64,000 nucleotides of DNA. Source: Myxococcota bacterium (GTDB lineage: Bacteria > Myxococcota_A > SURF-8). Location: positions 4,224,001 through 4,288,000 of the forward strand of contig OZ223209.1 in the NCBI GenBank assembly GCA_965140415.1, given 5' to 3'. Position numbers and translations under genes: made by a program. The notes under the pieces were generated by a model. That model saw only the letters and a list, made by a program, of their open reading frames with translations. It was not told where the DNA came from and did not search any database. The stretch's first letter is position 1, and each line of letters begins with the position of its first letter. Of this stretch, positions 44,442 through 56,562 are shown piece by piece.

Positions 44442-47400
44442 TTACCACTTTTTCGAATTGGCCAATCTTCTGCGTCGCACTACGAAAATCAAAAGACCGG
44501 CAACGAACCAACCTGCAAAACCGCCAGTCGTGGGCGGCTGCGAACATCCGCCGTCATCTACTGTTTCGGTTTCCAAATCGCCATCGACGACATCCCCATC
44601 GGACTCGCTGTCGCCATCGATTTCATCGCCATCCACCAAGTCACCGTCAATCACATCGCCGTCGACGACATCCCCATCCTTTTCACTGTCGCCATCGACT
44701 GCGTCGCCATCAACCTGATCTCCGTCCGGCAAGTCACCATCAATCCCATCGCCGTCTACAGAATCCCCGTCAATGACATCTCCATCGACGACATCGCCAT
44801 CAGGCAGATCACCATCGATGCCGTCTCCATCGGGTGCATCGCCATCCGGATCGGGCAGCAGATCGCCGCACTGGCACTCGGGAATATTCTGGGCATCCAA
44901 CTGGCAGGCATTGAATTCACGATTCTGTTGCAGGCAGTATTCCTCGCAGTTTTGCGCGCGCCAGGTTCCCTGATCGCAAACACAGGTGTTGATCGTCTCC
45001 ACGCAATGTCCTAGCTGCCAGGGCAAACAGGGGCCGTAGCAATTTCCCGGCTCGTAAACTTCGGTCACGCCTTCCGCTGCCACGATATGCACCGTTTTTT
45101 CCGTCTTGACGACGTTGTCGCCTTCATCGGTGACGCTCAAACCGATCACGTAATCCCCAACCTCATCGAAGCTATAAATGAACCACATCTGCGAGGCGTT
45201 CTTTTCTGCCGGGGTCTCATCGTCGATGGTCCAGTTCCACTCGATGATGCCGCGATCATCCAACGTACCCGCGCCGCTGAAAACCATGCGCTCTCCGACC
45301 ACACCGTACTCCTCTGCAAAGATCGCCGGTTCGGGAGGAGTCTCATCGATCATTGCGGTGACGCTGGCATTCAGTAAACCCGGCGCCCAAACTTTTCCAT
45401 AACCCCAGCCGATATCCGGCGTCGTACGATTTAACGTGCGGTCCGATCCAAGCATGTACGCCTTACGTACGCCTGCCGGGTCCAGGTTCGGCGCGTACTG
45501 CAACAACAACGCCGTAATTCCCGCCATCAGCGGAGAAGACGAACTGGTGCCGCTGAACATGGTGTAGGCTCCATGATCGAAATGATCTCCATTTGGATTG
45601 TAGTTGGTATAATACGGCAATGGCGCGCGCTGCTCCCAGGTTCCACTTACGGTGACGATCGGTTTGCCGTCGATGCGCAAGCCCCGCCCGCTGTAGTAAG
45701 TCAATCCTTCCTGTCCGCCGGTATGATCGTGGGCGGCCACGCCGATTCCGGCGTCGCTGGTGCTGGGGAAATCGGCGGTGGTAATATGCGCGGTGGCTTC
45801 ACTGCCGTTATTGGCATCGGAGGTAAAAACCGCCCCGTAAAAGAAGGATGATACGTTGTCGCCAACGAAACCGACCACATCCACCGGCACTCGTCCCCGG
45901 TTGACCAGACGGAATTTGCGCGGAAGCGTCAAGGCCGATTCGTCTTCCATCCAGTAGATAATTTCAATATTATCCGTACCACGCTCGCTTTCACCCATTG
46001 TCACCCATTCAACCGCGCCGCTCTCATCCCACAAATAGCCGCTCTTCAATTCGCGACCGAACATACCATTGGGTACCCATACGAATATATCCTGATCCGG
46101 TCGCCTCCAGCGGAAATGCAACGACAGATAGTAAGGATCGCCTACGAAATAGGTAGGATCCAGCGCAACCGAAATTTCGTGGCTGCCACCAGCCGGCACA
46201 CGGAAACGTGCGGCTTTCTTGGAACTATGGAAATTGCAGGTCGGGTTGATCTGCACCATGCCCGCCGCTTCGGCTTCATTCATTGCAAGAGAATCGTTGG
46301 CGGAGCCATCCAGCGGAGCCGGTCCATTTACGCACCATTCGTGCAACGCGATATCCGCGCCTGCATCCGCGCAGAAAGAGAGCGTCGCCGCCAGATGGGA
46401 AAGTCCGCCCTCGCCTTCTCCCTCGTAATAGCTGCTGATAATGCTCTCCACCAGCACCAGTTCGGCGTCGTATGCCACGCCGCGCAGACGATGCCCCGGA
46501 TGCCCCGAAGCGCTGATGCCCGAAGTTCCCGTTCCGTGAGAGCCAGTGCCCTGGCGGTCGAAAGGATAGTTGATGAGGTTATCGCCACGAGTATACACGC
46601 CCAGTTGCTGGGTGTAATAATCATAGGTATAAGCGATTTTCACCTTGCTGGTGCCCAGTCCGACCAGAAGTTCCCCCACGTCGAGTTGGTTGTTCTCGTT
46701 GTCGTCCAATACATAAAACAGCCGCTCTCCGTAGCAGGGATCTTGTTCCGTGAATCCTTGATCCGGGCCGAAGTTGCGCTGATGATCTTCGTTGGCATCG
46801 TTGTATAAATGATCGAGATCCGCCTGGAATACACCGTCGTTGTTGCTGATCTGACCCCATTCGCTGATGACGGCATCGAAGAAATCAAGAATCTCGCCAG
46901 TGTCCGCAATATCGTTGCCGTTTAAATCCACCGCGTCCACCCCGGGAGTAAACGCCTGATCCAGATCGACGTCGATCCAGGAGAACTCGCCGCCATCGCT
47001 TTTAAAATACGCCGGATGAAAAAGATCCACCGTGGAATCGTCGATGCAAACCGTGGAACCCAAGCCCGTTACAGGCTGCTCATTCTGATCGCTGTAATTT
47101 TCATAAACCTGATCGATGCCGTTTGAAACTCGCGCCGTTTCCATGGGACGCAGGATTTTCGCCAGTCCCGGCTCGATGCGCGATACCGTTGCAATCGTCG
47201 CCACACGTTCAAGATCCGCTCGCTTTATCGAACCTGGATAAACGCGCCCGACATGCATCCAGCGACCGTCGTGAACGATTGGACGAAAACCGGCCTGCTG
47301 CAATCTCTGACGCTCGGCGACATCCGGGAGAAATTCCAATCTTAAGGAAACGGCCCGCAGATCCAGATCGGTCGCTTTCAACGCGGGAATGCCCGGCATG

Positions 47401-47525
47401 GACATCGGAGCCAAGAGCGAAGGATGAATTTTTTCCTGCTTATCCAGAGCCATAGCGCTGGTAAAACCCAAACAGGAATAGAGTAAAAAGAGAAGGCAAA
47501 GGGCGCGTACGGCAGATCGTTTCAT
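44442..47525 (-). CDS. Secreted S8 subtilase with PKD-like domain, Cys module, DGD-repeat stalk and MYXO-CTERM-like anchor
   Basis: Signal peptide; catalytic triad IDDS / HGTGTSG / GTSSSSP; tail DDGGCSQ...GWFVAGLLIFVVRRRR. Confidence 0.9.
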   Translation of the reverse strand: MKRSAVRALCLLFLLYSCLGFTSAMALDKQEKIHPSLLAPMSMPGIPALKATDLDLRAVSLRLEFLPDVAERQRLQQAGFRPIVHDGRWMHVGRVYPGSIKRADLERVATIATVSRIEPGLAKILRPMETARVSNGIDQVYENYSDQNEQPVTGLGSTVCIDDSTVDLFHPAYFKSDGGEFSWIDVDLDQAFTPGVDAVDLNGNDIADTGEILDFFDAVISEWGQISNNDGVFQADLDHLYNDANEDHQRNFGPDQGFTEQDPCYGERLFYVLDDNENNQLDVGELLVGLGTSKVKIAYTYDYYTQQLGVYTRGDNLINYPFDRQGTGSHGTGTSGISASGHPGHRLRGVAYDAELVLVESIISSYYEGEGEGGLSHLAATLSFCADAGADIALHEWCVNGPAPLDGSANDSLAMNEAEAAGMVQINPTCNFHSSKKAARFRVPAGGSHEISVALDPTYFVGDPYYLSLHFRWRRPDQDIFVWVPNGMFGRELKSGYLWDESGAVEWVTMGESERGTDNIEIIYWMEDESALTLPRKFRLVNRGRVPVDVVGFVGDNVSSFFYGAVFTSDANNGSEATAHITTADFPSTSDAGIGVAAHDHTGGQEGLTYYSGRGLRIDGKPIVTVSGTWEQRAPLPYYTNYNPNGDHFDHGAYTMFSGTSSSSPLMAGITALLLQYAPNLDPAGVRKAYMLGSDRTLNRTTPDIGWGYGKVWAPGLLNASVTAMIDETPPEPAIFAEEYGVVGERMVFSGAGTLDDRGIIEWNWTIDDETPAEKNASQMWFIYSFDEVGDYVIGLSVTDEGDNVVKTEKTVHIVAAEGVTEVYEPGNCYGPCLPWQLGHCVETINTCVCDQGTWRAQNCEEYCLQQNREFNACQLDAQNIPECQCGDLLPDPDGDAPDGDGIDGDLPDGDVVDGDVIDGDSVDGDGIDGDLPDGDQVDGDAVDGDSEKDGDVVDGDVIDGDLVDGDEIDGDSESDGDVVDGDLETETVDDGGCSQPPTTGGFAGWFVAGLLIFVVRRRRLANSKKW
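44577..44846 (-). repeat. 18 x DGD pentapeptide (about 15-bp) repeat stalk
   Basis: PDGDAPDGDGIDGDLPDGDVVDGDV... in the subtilase C-terminus. Confidence 0.9.
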
Positions 47526-47719
47526 CGGTGATTCCTCCAAATACGAAACAACACAAATACAGAGAACCAGACTGCCACCGCTGATGTCCGCTGTCAACAG
47601 GTTTTATCGTTTTTCGATAAACCCACTTTTCGCATCGGTGTGCTAGCCGGGTTGGGTTTTGGCAAAATCGATAGACATGAAAAGCTGCTTTCTACGATTT
47701 TGTAAGACCGTTCTACTTC

Positions 47720-47925
47720 GACCGTAGACCGACAGTAAATGACACGAAAACGACATCAACTGACCGTAAACGCACAGTAAAAAATTCACTGAATTTGCCA
47801 CATATCCTAGCAAATAAGCAAACAGGCCACTTTTGCGACTGATACTGAAAATCAAGTGGTCATCTGCGGTCATTTCGTGTGGTTTTTGTGCGATTCTACT
47901 GTAGTTTTAGTGCGGTTTTTGTACG
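47720..47925. repeat. Two convergent arrays of helically phased 10-11-bp degenerate repeats
   Basis: Plus-strand units start at 47720, 47731, 47741, 47752, 47762 and 47773. Minus-strand units start at 47861, 47871, 47881, 47892, 47903, 47914 and 47925. Consensus about (G/C)AC(A/C)GTAAAN. Confidence 0.75.
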
Positions 47926-48187
47926 TTTGCCGCCGCGTAGTGGCAGAACTTGCTTCGCGGTTGCTACAGATATAAGCCATTATCAGGATATTTTACAGCA
48001 TAAAACTTGCTGTACTCGGTTCTTGAGAACAAGCTACAATTTCTGAAACCGTCCCAAAGTTCTCACATTCAATTTTCCCCGCCCGCCAGCCATCATAATT
48101 TCATTGTGATTCCGGCAAACTTGAGTACACTGCATGCTGTCGCATAGGCCGGAAAAAGACTTCTAAAGAAGAAACAAGATTAAACGC

Positions 48188-49546
48188 ATGACCCAGTCAC
48201 CGAAAACCACCAACCTGACGCAACTACCCATGAACCGGGCGATTTTGACGATGGCGATTCCTGCCAGCGGAGCGATGGTCATCGAATCTTTGTATCATTT
48301 GGTAGACACGTTCTGGGTCGGCAAACTGGGCGCGTTGCCATTAGCCGCCGCCAGCGCGACTTCCTTCGTATTATGGATGCTGATGTCTTTCGGCGATTTA
48401 ACCGGCGTTGCCGCCAATGCGTTAAGCGCCCAGGAAGTCGGAGCCAATCGCAGCGAGCGCGTCAAGGAACATCTCGGCCAATGCCTGAGCCTGGCGCTAA
48501 TCTTGAGCGTCGCTTTTCTGCTTATCATGCTGCCCTTGCGACAGGTTCTGTTTGGCTGGCTGAATCTGGAAGTAGAGGTCAGCTCCCTGGCGGTTGAATA
48601 CCTGCTTCCCTGGCTATTGGGATTGCCGGTGATATTTTCCGCCATCACGGTCAATGCCGCCTTTCGCGGCGTCGGCGATGCGAAAACGCCGATGCTGCTG
48701 ATGGGCATTGCAGTTATTTTCAATGCCATACTCGACCCTCTTTTCATTTTCGGCCTGGGACCGATTCCCGGCATGGGTTTGACAGGCGCTGCCTGGGTGA
48801 CGGTCGCCGCTCACGCCGTGATTCTGGCTATCGGTTTGAAGATTCTGCGTAAACGCGAGTTATTACCCCGTTTTTCACTGCGCCAACTGAAAGTTCCCTG
48901 GGATGACGCCCGCAGAATTATTTCGGTTGGCCTGCCCATCGCCTTAAACGGCGCGTTTTTCAGCTTGATTTACATCGGCTTGACCTGGGTAATCGCTTCG
49001 TTCGGTTCGACTCCTATCGCCGCTTTGGGAATCGGCCATCGCATGGAGGCGTTCCCATGGTTTATCGCCTACGGTTTCTCTATCGCCGCCGCCAGCTTGA
49101 TCGGGCAATACGTCGGCGCGGGACAACCCGAGCAAGCTGAAAAAGCCGCCTGGCGCACCGGCTTCGTTGCGCTGGCTTTCGAAGCGGTCTTCGCGGTATT
49201 GATCTTGATCTGGGTGGAACCCATCGTTCGTTTTTTCATCGACGATCCGGCGGTGGTTTCGCAGTCGGCGGTGTATCTGCGAATCGTGGCGGTCTGCTGG
49301 CTGATCGGCGTGTTCGAAGTCGTTTTAGAGGGCGCTTTCGGCGGCGCCGGAGACACCCTGCCCCCTTTGTTGATCGGCGTGATTTTCACCGCGTTGCGCA
49401 TCCCCGCCGCCTATCTTTTCGCCATTGTGCTGGATGGCGGTATCGTGGCGGTCTGGTGGACCATCGGGCTTTCTTCGGCAGTGAAAGGCGCGTTGTTGAT
49501 TTTCTGGTTCAAGCGTGGAAAATGGAAACGGAAGCGGCTGGTGTGA
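48188..49546 (+). CDS. MATE-family efflux transporter
   Basis: MAIP...YHLVDTFWVGKLG, FRGVGDAKTPM, NAILDPLFIFG and GAGDT repeat; about 12 TM helices. Confidence 0.93.
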   Translation: MTQSPKTTNLTQLPMNRAILTMAIPASGAMVIESLYHLVDTFWVGKLGALPLAAASATSFVLWMLMSFGDLTGVAANALSAQEVGANRSERVKEHLGQCLSLALILSVAFLLIMLPLRQVLFGWLNLEVEVSSLAVEYLLPWLLGLPVIFSAITVNAAFRGVGDAKTPMLLMGIAVIFNAILDPLFIFGLGPIPGMGLTGAAWVTVAAHAVILAIGLKILRKRELLPRFSLRQLKVPWDDARRIISVGLPIALNGAFFSLIYIGLTWVIASFGSTPIAALGIGHRMEAFPWFIAYGFSIAAASLIGQYVGAGQPEQAEKAAWRTGFVALAFEAVFAVLILIWVEPIVRFFIDDPAVVSQSAVYLRIVAVCWLIGVFEVVLEGAFGGAGDTLPPLLIGVIFTALRIPAAYLFAIVLDGGIVAVWWTIGLSSAVKGALLIFWFKRGKWKRKRLV

Positions 49547-49621
49547 TCTGATATATATCCGCTTATATTTCTACTAGGCATTCAGAATTACCAGCTTCGC
49601 CTAACCGCTTACTCTCTTTGT

Positions 49622-49711
49622 TGGTTCAAGGCTCCTGTCTTGAACCACAGGTTTTTGATCGGGGCTCCCGTCCCGACCACAAAGACAAACGTCAGGAGCA
49701 GGACAGGAGCC
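49622..49711. repeat. Cluster of REP-like hairpins with conserved GCTCCYGT loop
   Basis: TGGTTCAAG-GCTCCTGT-CTTGAACCA; GATCGGG-GCTCCCGT-CCCGACC; an inverted third copy GGAGCAGG-ACAGGAGC-C is interrupted by the IS. Confidence 0.6.
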
Positions 49712-51017
49712 CACAGCTGTCCCGCTAACTTCCAGGTTCAGCGCTACAACTACTTATTATTACAGATTGAATTTGTGATTATCAGGTGTCCGCGATAGTT
49801 TTTCTGCATTTCGAATAGTCAAGAAATGCAGGAGATCAAAATGACACAGACTGTCTTTTCGCAAGTGCTCGACTATTTGCCGGATCGCCATTTCCGCCGT
49901 TGTGTCAATCGCTATCAGGGGAACAAGCGCATTCGTACCTTTTCCTGTATGGATCAATTCATTTGCATGGCATTTGCCCAGCTGGCCTACCGCGAAAGCC
50001 TGCGCGATATTGAAGCGACCTTGCGGGCTATTCAGCTGAAACTTTATCACATGGGTCTGCGTGGAAAAGTCTCTCGCAACACACTGGCCAGAGCGAATGA
50101 AAAACGCGACTGGCGCATTTACGCAGATCTCGCTCAGCCCCTGATACGGCGCGCCCGCGCGCTGTATGCGGACGAGAAGCTCGCCGTCGACCTAGACGCC
50201 ACCACCTACGCGCTCGACACGACAGCGATTGATTTGAGTTTGTCGCTTTTTCCATGGGCCAAATTCACGCGATACAATGGATCATTGCGTCTTCACACGC
50301 AAATGGACCTTCGCGGACGGATTCCCGCCTTTATTTCCATTACGGACGGCAAGAGCCATGACAAGCGTTTACTGGATATTCTGCCTTTGGAAGCGGGCGC
50401 ATTTTATATCATGGATCGCGGTTATGTCGATTACGGACGCATGCATCGCATCCATCGGGCGGGAGCCTTCTTCATTCTTAGAGCCAGCAAGAACACCAGC
50501 ACAAAGCGAATCTATTCACACCCCATCGACAAGAGCTTGGGATTGCGCGCCGATCAGACCGTGAGCTTCGTGGACCGTGCTTCCATTCGACGCTATCCGG
50601 ATCATGTGCGGCGAATCAACTACATCGATCCAGAATCGAACACCCGATTTGTCTGGCTGACCAACAACTTTGATCTTTCTTCGGAAACGATTCCGGACTT
50701 GTACCGGCTGCGGTGGAGTATCGAAGTGTTTTTCAAATGGATCAAACAGAATCTGCGAATCAAGGCGTTTTACGGTCGCAGCGCCAATGCGGTAAAGACA
50801 CAAGTGTGGATTTCGATTACGGTTTATCTGTTGGTTGCGATTCTGAAAAAGGATCTGAATCTCGAGCACAGTTTGATGACGATTCTACAGATTTTAAGCG
50901 TCACGCTTTTCGAGGAAAGCCCCATTTTACAGGTGCTAAAGGCAAACGCCTCCCTGCCTACCAATATCCCTTTTGGTAAGCAGTTGGAATTATTCAATAG
51001 TTAACGGGACAGCTGTG
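49712..51017 (+). mobile_element. IS4-family insertion sequence (1306 bp)
   Basis: 19-bp terminal inverted repeats CACAGCTGTCCCGCTAACT (49712-49730) and AGTTAACGGGACAGCTGTG (50999-51017), one mismatch. Flanks GACAGGAGCC and GGCGGGAGCC match 8/10. Confidence 0.9.
49826..51004 (+). CDS. IS4-family DDE transposase (DUF4372-type N-terminus)
   Basis: MAFAQLAYRESLRDIE, ALDTT, IMDRGY and YRLRWSIEVFFKWIKQ (YREK). Confidence 0.95.
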   Translation: MQEIKMTQTVFSQVLDYLPDRHFRRCVNRYQGNKRIRTFSCMDQFICMAFAQLAYRESLRDIEATLRAIQLKLYHMGLRGKVSRNTLARANEKRDWRIYADLAQPLIRRARALYADEKLAVDLDATTYALDTTAIDLSLSLFPWAKFTRYNGSLRLHTQMDLRGRIPAFISITDGKSHDKRLLDILPLEAGAFYIMDRGYVDYGRMHRIHRAGAFFILRASKNTSTKRIYSHPIDKSLGLRADQTVSFVDRASIRRYPDHVRRINYIDPESNTRFVWLTNNFDLSSETIPDLYRLRWSIEVFFKWIKQNLRIKAFYGRSANAVKTQVWISITVYLLVAILKKDLNLEHSLMTILQILSVTLFEESPILQVLKANASLPTNIPFGKQLELFNS

Positions 51018-51225
51018 GGCGGGAGCCATGATCCAACATCAGACATCCAATTGTCGGGCAGATTGGTGTCGGGCAAGACATTTGCCCTACCTACGAGACT
51101 ACATGCTGATCAACCTAAAAAATTGAGGAAAGCCTACGAATTTTACTATGCATTGCGTCATGCCCGGGGTAGACTCGCTTCCGTTGTTGTTTGAAGTTGT
51201 TTGGTCTGTTGAAAGGTGATTTGTA

Positions 51226-53558: not shown

Positions 53559-56147
53559 ATGGGGAGTAAGCGCAAACCCAAGGGAATCAAACTGGGGAAG
53601 AAATCGCCGAACAAGGTCAAGCCGGGGAAGCTGCCATCCCCGGAAGAGTTGAAAAACGCCTTTACACAGGCGGTGCAGTTGCACCAGGCCGGGAAACTGG
53701 ATCAGGCCGAGCAGCAGTATAAAGCCTTGCAGGTCATGCTGCCCAATCATGACGGCTTGCTCACGCTGATGGGCATTCTGGCGTTGCAGAAGCAGAAACC
53801 GGCGCAGGCCGTGGAATATTTGCAACGCTCCCTGGAGCAGAACGCCGAGAACGCCAAAGCTTGCGATTCGCTGGGGGCGGCATATCTGATGCTGAATCAA
53901 CCGGAGCAGGCACTTTCCCATACCACACAGGCAACTCGGCTGCAACCCAACAATTCGGAGTATCGCTTTAATCTGGCGGTGATCTTGAAAAAGCTGGAAC
54001 GCACGGAAGAAGCCGTCAAGCAATACCAGAAAGCGATTCGACTGCAACCGAAGGCGGCGAATGCGCGCACCAATCTGGGAGCGATATACTGTGAACGCGC
54101 AGAATGGGACGAGGCCAAGGAGCAATTGAAAGCGGCTTTGGAGATTCGTGCGGATCTGATTCCCGCCCGCTTGAATCTGGCGCGAGCCTATTTCGCTACC
54201 GACGAGTTGGATTTGGCCAGTGAAGAATTCGAAAAGGTGCTGACAGCACAACCTGAAAATCCGGATGCCTTACTTGGGCTGGGTCGACTGGCGCATGGGC
54301 GCGGCGATCACGAACTGGCGCTGTCGTATTACAATCGGGTCGAACAACTCGCCCCCGAACATCCTCACGTTCACGGCGACCGGGCGCGAACCTTGCTCGA
54401 ATTGAATCGACTGGATGAGGCGTTGCAGGACAGCGAACGGGCGCTTGCACGAAGTCCCGAAACGGCGTTATTGCAATTGACGCATGGGGCCATCGAATTG
54501 CGCCTGGCGCATTACGGGCGCTCGTTGGAGCACGTGCAGAAAGCGCTAGAGTTGAATAACGGCCTGGCGCGGGCCTGGTGGCTGTCGGCTTTTGCGATGG
54601 TAAAACTGGGCCACTACGAAGAAGCACTGCCTGCATATAAACAGGCATTGAAACTGGATGAAGAGTCGGGGCCGCTGCATCAGGAGTTTGCCGAGTTCTT
54701 GATGCAGGACATCAATAAACACGAGCAGGCCGTTCAACATCTGGAGCGGGCCATGCAACTTGGTGTACCTAAGATGCTGGCGCTTCAAAGCAAGCTTGCC
54801 GAAGCACAGGCGTATCTGTGCGACTGGGATGCATTCGAGAATAGTTGCGACACACTGATTCCGGCGATGGAAGCCAAGCTCGATGCGGGTGAACCGTTAG
54901 GTGTGGCCCTATTGGTGGCGATGGGATTTCCCATCTCTGCGGGGTTATTGCATCGTCTGGCAAAGAGCGAGGCGAGAAGCATCGACAAGCGCCGCACCGC
55001 GCCGCGTTTCACTGCGGTGAAGCATTCGCATTCACGCCTGCGCATCGGGTATGTCTCTCCCGATTTCTCCTCGCATGCACTGGGTTTTCTGTTACAGGAT
55101 CTCTTCAGCCATCACGACCGGGAAAAATTCGAAATCAGCGCGTATTCACTGCGCAAGCGCTCCGACACGTTCCGGGCGACGATTGAAGGCAGCGTGGATC
55201 ACTTCATCGATCTTACCGAGTTGTCGGATCTGGATGCCGCCCGGCGCATTCATGCGGACGAAATCGATATTCTGATCGATCTGGCGGGCTACACCTCCGG
55301 CTGTCGTCCGGGCATCTTCAGCTATCATCCGGGGGCGATTCAATGCGCCATGCTCGGCTATCCGGGCACACTGGGATCGAGCGCGATGGAGTACGTCGTT
55401 ACGCATTCTCTTGCAGTACCAGAAGAATTACGCGAGCACTACAGCGAGAAGATCGTCGCGTTGCCCGAAACTTTGTTTGCCACAAAAGGCTTTACCATAC
55501 CGGAACAACCGCCCCGGCGCAGCGACTACGGTCTGCCGGATAGCGGCGTGGTGTTCTGCTGCTTCAACAATACCTATCGCATTACGCGCGAAGTCTTTTC
55601 GGTGTGGATGGAGATCCTGAAGCAAACACCGGAGAGCGTGCTGTGGCTGAACGTGCGCAACGAAGCCACGCGCAAACGCCTGCTTCTTGCAGCCAAAGAG
55701 CAAGGCGTCAAAAAGGACCGCCTCGTCTTTGCCAACTTCAAAAACATGAGCGACAACTGGCCACACCGCCTGGCGGATCTGTGGCTGGACACTTTCGTGC
55801 TCTCCGCAGGAACGGCGACATTCCTGGCCGCCTGGGCCGGGTTGCCGGTATTGACACTGGCCGGAAACACGCCGCAATCGCGTACCGGCGCTAGCCTGGT
55901 TTCGGCCTGCGGGCTGGACGATCTGGTGGTGGATAGCATCGAGGCGTATCGGCAGCGAGCCATCGAACTGGGAACGCAGCCGCAGGCACTGCATCAATAC
56001 AAAGCGCAGCTATTGGAGCGACGGGAGCAGTTGCCGCTGTTCGATCCGCTGCGATACATCAAGCACCTGGAAGCCGCATTCCGACAGATGAACGAGCAGT
56101 TTCTTTCCGGTGAACCTGTGACGGATATTGATGTGAAAGCGGTTTAA
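53559..56147 (+). CDS. TPR-containing O-GlcNAc transferase/SPINDLY-like glycosyltransferase (GT41)
   Basis: Multiple N-terminal TPRs, then RLRIGYVSPDF..H, IDILIDLAGYT, LGYPGT, FCCFNN and ADLWLDT. Confidence 0.9.
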   Translation: MGSKRKPKGIKLGKKSPNKVKPGKLPSPEELKNAFTQAVQLHQAGKLDQAEQQYKALQVMLPNHDGLLTLMGILALQKQKPAQAVEYLQRSLEQNAENAKACDSLGAAYLMLNQPEQALSHTTQATRLQPNNSEYRFNLAVILKKLERTEEAVKQYQKAIRLQPKAANARTNLGAIYCERAEWDEAKEQLKAALEIRADLIPARLNLARAYFATDELDLASEEFEKVLTAQPENPDALLGLGRLAHGRGDHELALSYYNRVEQLAPEHPHVHGDRARTLLELNRLDEALQDSERALARSPETALLQLTHGAIELRLAHYGRSLEHVQKALELNNGLARAWWLSAFAMVKLGHYEEALPAYKQALKLDEESGPLHQEFAEFLMQDINKHEQAVQHLERAMQLGVPKMLALQSKLAEAQAYLCDWDAFENSCDTLIPAMEAKLDAGEPLGVALLVAMGFPISAGLLHRLAKSEARSIDKRRTAPRFTAVKHSHSRLRIGYVSPDFSSHALGFLLQDLFSHHDREKFEISAYSLRKRSDTFRATIEGSVDHFIDLTELSDLDAARRIHADEIDILIDLAGYTSGCRPGIFSYHPGAIQCAMLGYPGTLGSSAMEYVVTHSLAVPEELREHYSEKIVALPETLFATKGFTIPEQPPRRSDYGLPDSGVVFCCFNNTYRITREVFSVWMEILKQTPESVLWLNVRNEATRKRLLLAAKEQGVKKDRLVFANFKNMSDNWPHRLADLWLDTFVLSAGTATFLAAWAGLPVLTLAGNTPQSRTGASLVSACGLDDLVVDSIEAYRQRAIELGTQPQALHQYKAQLLERREQLPLFDPLRYIKHLEAAFRQMNEQFLSGEPVTDIDVKAV

Positions 56148-56562
56148 ATCTCGTAGATGAAATAATGGGTTGACCATTATAAGGGTGGCACGTGGCCAAG
56201 CGAAGTGAAACGGAGCTTGCCCGTGTTCTTGTTTTGATACATGGGCAACCTGCGGTTAGCCCATGCCACCCGGTCGTGAAAGCGATTTAATTCTCGTAGA
56301 TGAAATGATGGGTTGACCATTGTAAGGGTGGTACGTGGCCAAGCGAAGTGAAACGGAGCTTGCCCGTGTTCTTGTTTTGATACATGGGCAACCTGCGGTT
56401 AGCCCATGCCACCCGGTCGTGAAAGCGATTTAAATCTCGTAGATGAAATAATGGGTTGACCATTATAAGGGTGGCATGTGGCCAAGCGGAGAGAAACGGA
56501 GCTTGCCCGTGTTCTTGTTTTGACACATGGGCAACCTGCGGTTAGCCCATGCCACCCGGTCG
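56133..56562. repeat. 3 x 143-bp tandem repeat, each unit carrying an inverted REP-like pair (BIME/REPIN-like)
   Basis: Near-identical units start at 56133, 56276 and 56419. Each has GGGTGGCAYG...CATGCCACCC outer arms and a CATGGGCAACC-TGC-GGTTAGCCCATG hairpin. Confidence 0.92.

Follow-up and report, generated by a model that had tools for sequence, protein, structure and literature searches.

Why should two short arrays of repeats, each recurring at about one turn of the DNA helix and each pointing toward the other, occupy the gap between a subtilase gene and a divergently oriented MATE transporter gene? The site lies in a stretch of 64,000 nucleotides, hereafter called the window, within a single-contig genome of 5.98 Mb (93.7% complete by markers). 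It is a member of a family of ~200-240-bp DNA platforms confined to its lineage. In each platform, two inward-pointing arms of 4-7 sites at ~10.7-bp steps enclose a centre with a second type of phased site. These platforms have, in our judgement, an even chance of being selected sites around which two proteins would wrap the DNA, with a role in chromosome architecture, and this is the reading that we favour.

Paired arrays in the subtilase/MATE gap

The gap measures 662 bp from the likely subtilase ATG (47525) to the MATE ATG (48188). Both arms consist of a unit, termed X, with a G/C-rich half followed by an A-rich half, and the locus is organized as follows (window positions; subfamily A is described below):

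44442..47525, minus strand: subtilase-like protein with a MYXO-CTERM tail, a neighbour outside the element
47719..47782, plus strand: left arm, six X units pointing toward the spacer (chain score 48.2 bits)
47783..47851, no strand: subfamily-A spacer, 69 bp, homologous to nine other copies
47801..47840, plus strand: weak 8-bp-period tract within the A spacer (from pooled autocorrelation of ten A spacers), candidate sites for a second protein
47851..47925, minus strand: right arm, seven X units pointing toward the spacer (5' ends 47861-47925)
47926..47945, minus strand: outer tail, common in alignments to the A copies at 968k, 1225k, 3171k and 5303k of the same genome, which reads as more degenerate units
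48188..49546, plus strand: MATE transporter (TIGR00797 over cut-off), a neighbour outside the element

All 13 units listed in a preliminary description of the locus, six on the plus and seven on the minus strand, were found where it had placed them, with left-arm starts at 47720/31/41/52/62/73 (steps 11, 10, 11, 10, 11). Periodicity was scored as the summed autocorrelation at lags 10/11, 21, 31/32 and 42 and compared with 2000 dinucleotide shuffles. None of these shuffles reached the value of the whole region (0/2000) or of the left arm (likewise 0/2000), and two reached that of the right arm (2/2000), which confirms the proposed 10/11-bp period; the spacer of this copy was matched by 1774/2000 shuffles. 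The arms, as had also been noted, do not form a clean long inverted repeat: their best inverted match covers 29 nt at 76%, and the fold of the element does not stand out from those of shuffled sequences (z = -1.16). Tandem Repeats Finder did not include the array among its repeats in the window, an Rfam search of the array returned 0 matches at E<=1, and 0 sigma-70-like promoters were found in the gap. Among the available sequencing runs, one contig spans the element with no difference, contigs of a second run (which may be the source) overlap within the right arm without differences, and none of the joints listed falls at the element.

Two other repeats were recorded in the window. An IS4-family element (NF033592, window 49620-51060) with ~13 matching loci in the genome is flanked by REP-like hairpins, and reads show divergent relatives of it as well as circle-like joints. 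At window 56133-56562, directly after a TPR protein gene, a 143-bp unit is repeated three times in tandem at 95% identity.

A dispersed family within one chromosome

Copies were collected by BLAST and nhmmer, and arms by an iterated matrix with a chain of 10-or-11-bp steps. This yielded 51 arms above 22 bits vs. 1 in a block-shuffled genome, while chains with steps of 8/9, 12/13 or 14/15 gave 0-1, and a pair scan found 25 convergent pairs above 28 bits vs. 0 and 0 in two shuffles. Block shuffles replaced the reversed genome, which is invalid as a null because arrays of the commonest unit are mirror-symmetric. Of the 35 loci on the working list, 34 are intergenic and the other overlaps the start of a gene; six are single or same-direction arms. 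Two arrays in protein linkers (488k and 5064k) were left out of this list, and a three-unit coding hit at 3485k was removed before spacing counts. The possibility that the array is a dispersed genome-wide element, raised at the outset, is thus borne out by ~35 loci.

Orientation and step are regular throughout the family: 19 of 21 neighbouring arm pairs are convergent, two point in the same direction and none is divergent, and the unit steps (126 of 11 bp, 65 of 10 bp) average 10.66 bp. The copies sort into subfamily A (10 aligned, including that of the window), subfamily B (13 aligned) and unassigned copies, the subfamilies being clear, with graded identity of 60-90%. Three young copies have 400-480 bp in common at 84-89%, REP-like hairpins included.

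Some relatives of the arms depart from this plan. Four A-type copies (near 1971k, 2203k, 2495k and 4056k) have, in place of the left arm, a CACA-rich 10-bp variant resembling DnaA boxes by eye. X arrays also occur in frame, as the signal-peptide-like stretch of a subtilase (1833160-1833230) and, in the two cases excluded above (488330-488392 and 5064657-5064709), as low-complexity linkers of exported proteins.

Distribution in other genomes

The search for such arrays elsewhere, fruitful within this genome, gave no credible copy in its relatives. The array had no blastn match in 40 relatives, and a pattern search hit one of the 40, by chance, in a signal-peptide codon run. Two profile models (R1 and R2) each gave marginal matches in 2/40 (E 0.03-0.05), none of them an array on inspection, and among the 14 candidates scored per genome R1 found nothing at E 0.001 in 150 genomes of the phylum. 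No credible copies were found in five genomes of the same family, and in two of these (G001 and G004), of which 400 kb each (<10% of each) were scanned, no X/Y array exceeded ~19 bits. In the species collection, the one exact pattern tried matched 4 times. Three of these matches are in DNA that appears to be coding; the fourth (L023:1480-1540), a short same-strand X-like 10-bp run forming a single arm and overlapping a Porphyromonadaceae gene start, is possibly chance. Searches with a few exact patterns returned 0 matches in metagenomes, in viral contigs and in plasmid and phage collections, and a MATE scan of metagenomes found no close relative; all of these negatives apply to collections from which very near genomes may be absent. 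We found no description of the array family in the main texts of the open-access literature.

Internal anatomy of the platforms

In the 46 arms scored, the position next to the innermost unit on its inner side is at background (0/46 above 4 bits), units 1-3 score in 70-80% of arms, and units 4-7 in 59, 50, 13 and 13%. The arms are therefore sharply bounded on the inside and weaken toward the outside, opposite to what transposon ends show.

Beyond what the preliminary description contained, the spacer itself holds a periodic array. In subfamily B the centre is an array built from another unit, termed Y (core GCAGCA), with steps of exactly 10 bp in 13/13 chains (two of them weak) and a pooled autocorrelation of z = 14.4 at lag 10, 10.0 at lag 20 and 8.2 at lag 30. 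The A centre has a weaker 8-bp period (pooled z = 5.6 at lag 8, ten A spacers).

The distance between the arms is likewise quantised in helical turns. Inner-anchor distances in B are 88 in 8/13 copies, 98 in two and 78 in one, while the remaining two copies, which align poorly, give 80 and 112; in A they are 95-97 in 8/10, with 105 once and 85 in the window copy, i.e., one helical turn below the common value. The eight 88-bp B spacers differ by substitution without gaps (ungapped identity 50-92%, median 61%), compared to small gaps relative to the reference in 29/35 diverged copies of an unrelated control repeat, where the gaps are not independent events. Indels of a whole turn or whole unit in the 10-bp B spacer could come from slippage alone, and the lack of small indels is the stronger sign of selection. 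These phase analyses, together with the absence of covariation described below, uphold the earlier view of a bipartite, helically phased and predicted protein-binding architecture in which periodicity rather than base pairing is kept.

Outside the loci the two units behave differently. Y-unit pairs number 199 at lag 10 vs. 83, 89 and 88 at lags 13, 16 and 19, whereas X-unit pairs show no phasing (34 at lag 10 vs. 34, 30 and 37 at the same-frame control lags). This points to two binders, the one restricted to the platforms, the other more broadly distributed. Stand-alone Y arrays lie upstream of genes, and also in coding stretches for signal peptides or transmembrane segments. One of them (552410-554320, L235) is located upstream of a gene for a 147-aa protein without Pfam family, and the next gene is terminase-large-subunit-like (label by eye). 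Two small proteins encoded near arrays matched no Pfam family.

Chromosomal spacing

The third feature to emerge is an even distribution of the loci along the chromosome. With the locus list fixed ahead of the test, the coefficient of variation (CV) of the gaps between the 35 loci is 0.64, lower than expected under uniform placement (p = 0.0035) or placement in random large intergenic gaps (p = 0.0026), and stricter sets are also even (p = 0.048 for 25 loci, 0.024 for 23). Only 2 gaps are shorter than 60 kb vs. 10.1 expected, at a threshold chosen after seeing the data. Four control repeat families in this genome have random or clustered positions (CV 0.80-1.52). The median gap is ~130 kb, and locus-free gaps of 290-470 kb occur.

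In six Mantel tests (p 0.11-0.79), similarity between copies was linked neither to chromosomal distance nor to distance from the terminus, and, judging from copy coordinates and skew, both orientations of the element occur on both replichores of a chromosome with one ori/ter skew pattern. A partition site, one of the functions first considered, does not fit this layout: the loci are spread over the whole chromosome, none was found near dnaA/parAB, and the nearest arm to dnaA (148797-150131) lies at 272 kb. A plasmid parC or iteron origin is not supported either, given ~35 chromosomal loci with unrelated neighbours and no match in the plasmid and phage collections.

Neighbouring genes

By our own gene calls, 14 of the 34 intergenic loci are in tandem, 10 in convergent and 10 in divergent gaps, compared to 382, 101 and 347 for all gaps of 300-1500 bp (n = 830). 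The 70 flanking proteins include one paralogous pair, and co-duplication with genes was rejected. In five same-family genomes, the orthologues of the MATE gene (52-59% identity) have no array, differ in their neighbours and lack synteny. This speaks against the regulatory loop for the subtilase and MATE genes that had been envisaged, as neighbours are not shared and all gene orientations are represented, and suggests that the element is not a switch for adjacent genes.

A proposed architectural role

Kept phase and even spacing together point to nucleoid organization or supercoil management rather than control of adjacent genes. In the reading that we favour, one protein would polymerise head-to-tail on each arm, anchored at the sharp inner edge, and a second protein, or a bender, would occupy the centre, the DNA being wrapped or looped such that both arms stay on a fixed face of the helix. 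Copies would have spread by duplication, and selection would keep their phase and, apparently, their even chromosomal spacing. We place such wrapping platforms ahead of, in this order, a mobile element, gyrase sites or operators, and hairpins. It is tempting to speculate further, in a version that is doubtful as a whole, that the ~35 two-protein platforms, at roughly regular intervals of 70-200 kb, serve to anchor loops or delimit domains and are recognised by an undescribed family of nucleoid proteins in a lineage devoid of CdbA, and that the centre-binder also shapes coding DNA in stretches where the protein is under little constraint.

The prevailing view credits the domains of bacterial chromosomes mostly to transcription, SMC loading and nucleoid proteins of loose specificity, and the sequence-defined sites that we know of (parS, matS, SlmA/Noc) mark regions and are not regularly spaced. 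Phase kept to the base pair in copies that avoid each other would thus offer a direct test of sequence-encoded loop anchors in bacteria.

Two known systems come close in role. BIME/REP mosaics, as portrayed in the relevant sections of PMC6379681, are dispersed, intergenic, lineage-restricted and modular, often lie between convergent genes and have a proposed role in genome organization. The arrays are similarly dispersed, intergenic and restricted to a lineage, but lack a palindromic unit and a conserved hairpin, and are made instead of two kinds of helically phased direct repeats evenly spaced on the chromosome. CdbA, according to the cited part of PMC7156744, is a nucleoid protein of Myxococcus xanthus that recognises a direct repeat spaced by one helical turn; its >500 sites are found within genes as well as between them, and it bends DNA with little effect on transcription. 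The phylum is probably shared: MYXO-CTERM, along with the CdbA family in genomes of the same phylum as the present one, suggests Myxococcota. The genome-wide phasing of Y units resembles CdbA sites as described, while the sites given there are two-repeat motifs and those found here are 200-bp inverted platforms.

Two further systems come close in geometry. The E. coli oriC, in the portion of PMC4285127 drawn on here, has two opposed arrays of low-affinity DnaA sites that guide polymer assembly and are not in mutual helical phase, whereas the phase between arms is kept in the platforms and no array was found beside dnaA. BldC, Xis and RdfS, members of the winged helix-turn-helix (wHTH) group, form filaments on degenerate repeats, variable in number and spaced by about one turn, with an AT-rich half and a conserved C (parts of PMC5859096 and PMC11963761); the sites treated there are single arrays at promoters or att sites, unlike the inverted pairs with a central array seen here, which have no cognate gene nearby. 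By analogy, then, the role of the array would be that of BIME-2 or CdbA sites and its geometry that of BldC or oriC arrays, but it differs from each of the four in a defining feature; the nested second array and the even spacing set the family apart.

Candidate binding proteins

No candidate binder was found among the families searched, which counts against the platforms, as does the lack of any copy in the five same-family or 150 phylum genomes, odd for an essential architectural site. The CdbA family (TIGR04563) has 0 matches in this genome and is present in 10/20 relatives, and the best hit of a purpose-built CdbA profile had an E of 1.8. CdbA is essential in M. xanthus. Within the same family of genomes it was found in G003 and G005 and not found in G001, G002 and G004 or here; with three array-less genomes also devoid of it, the lack of CdbA alone has no explanatory value. 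Matches to the histone fold stayed below cut-off, and a weak one falls in a FliG-like protein (judged by eye). HU/IHF genes number 7, compared to 2-12 in nine relatives.

Alternative explanations

The family could instead be a non-autonomous mobile element (MITE- or attP-like), which we consider possible though less probable than selected platforms. The arms would then be transposase or integrase sites and the centre accessory-factor sites; phase would be kept since only assembly-competent copies spread, and even spacing would result from target immunity, as in Tn7. The clear subfamilies of graded identity and the lineage restriction are in line with this, and the young copies, with their long common stretches and REP-like hairpins, behave as mobile DNA would. 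Tn7 ends, too, are inverted arrays of weakly conserved, spaced sites, with an immunity exceeding 190 kb that could space copies, although the Tn7 sites described in the cited sections are of 22 bp behind a fixed 8-bp end (PMC9308760), compared to units of 10-11 bp with no fixed outer end in the arrays.

What argues against a mobile element is that the copies are ragged on the outside and sharply bounded on the inside, and that no terminal motif is common across subfamilies. For a comparison of flanks (target-site duplication), the ends are too ill-defined. The six single or tandem arms have no opposite arm above 17 bits within 8 kb, and hence no gene-carrying copy was seen. Mu/Tn7-type transposase genes matching the arrays were not found in the genome (the PF09299 search matched no control genome), and the rve-type ORFs encode 134-324 aa, shorter than Tn7-type transposases. 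None of 14 tyrosine-recombinase matches has an array beside it, and the sequencing runs showed neither a change nor, among the joints listed, any joint at the window element. If the platforms were mobile all the same, they would preserve, as fossils, a trace of target immunity that acted over long range on a non-autonomous element. In both cases, the arrays supply defined baits with which binders can be found by pull-down.

Strong gyrase or topoisomerase sites, or bendable DNA read by shape, are an unlikely explanation, although the alternating G/C- and A/T-rich halves would favour wrapping. As given in the relevant part of PMC6379681, the E. coli gyrase motif consists of a centre and two periodic arms (10.75 bp), close to the mean step found here, and BIME-2 repeats are transcription-independent strong gyrase sites; in raw counts, 10/34 loci lie between convergent genes vs. 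101/830 large gaps. However, the centre described there is ~35 bp (-16 to 19) and the motif degenerate, whereas the centres of the platforms span 78-112 bp and their arms are base-specific and polar. Gyrase is also universal, unlike the array family, and runs of four or more A number only 50 in 255 units, so that curvature alone is not the conserved feature.

Similarly improbable are operators for a BldC/Xis-type protein or a response regulator that would control the flanking genes via a loop. BldC binds direct repeats head-to-tail at an AT-rich tetramer with a C four bases on (cited part of PMC5859096), and 167/206 X units fit this rule, a loose one whose register was set by our own matrix; the fit is compatible with a wHTH polymer and not diagnostic of one. 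HTH_17 fusions to receiver-like and PilZ-like domains (partners judged by eye) are encoded, but HTH_17 genes are equally common in array-less relatives, and ten of the 11 HTH_17 matches were inspected and had no array upstream. The operator view is further weakened by the 10/34 loci between gene 3' ends, the single paralogous pair among flanking proteins and the lack of sigma-70-like promoters in the gap.

A REP/REPIN-like hairpin or structured RNA, to which the inverted arms, the REP-like hairpins adjoining a few copies and ten Y1 transposase matches in the genome might point, is very improbable and largely refuted, as arms pair with their own partners no better than with those of other loci (permutation p = 0.81 and 0.38), 0/11 predicted pairs covary in subfamily A, Rfam gave no match, the fold is unexceptional and array gaps are not richer in high-copy repeats (5/31 vs. 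122/799 other gaps).

Other phased repeats

Helically spaced repeats of other kinds were also recorded. In the same-family genome G004, unrelated inverted 11-bp repeats (L164:17490-17790) lie directly downstream of a gene for a 729-aa VirE-like primase-helicase and adjoin two tandem tyrosine integrase genes (labels by eye), a layout reminiscent of an iteron origin within an integrated element of satellite type. In the genome of the window, G-rich boxes at ~10-bp steps (1908975-1909030) precede the single copy of mraZ, presumably as expected for MraZ autoregulation. Direct-repeat runs of 10-11 bp with other unit sequences (at 305200, 1519043, 1790340, 1990392, 2389318, 4080455, 4292726 and 4504624) stand alone, mostly upstream of single genes, and are probably ordinary operators or island ends.
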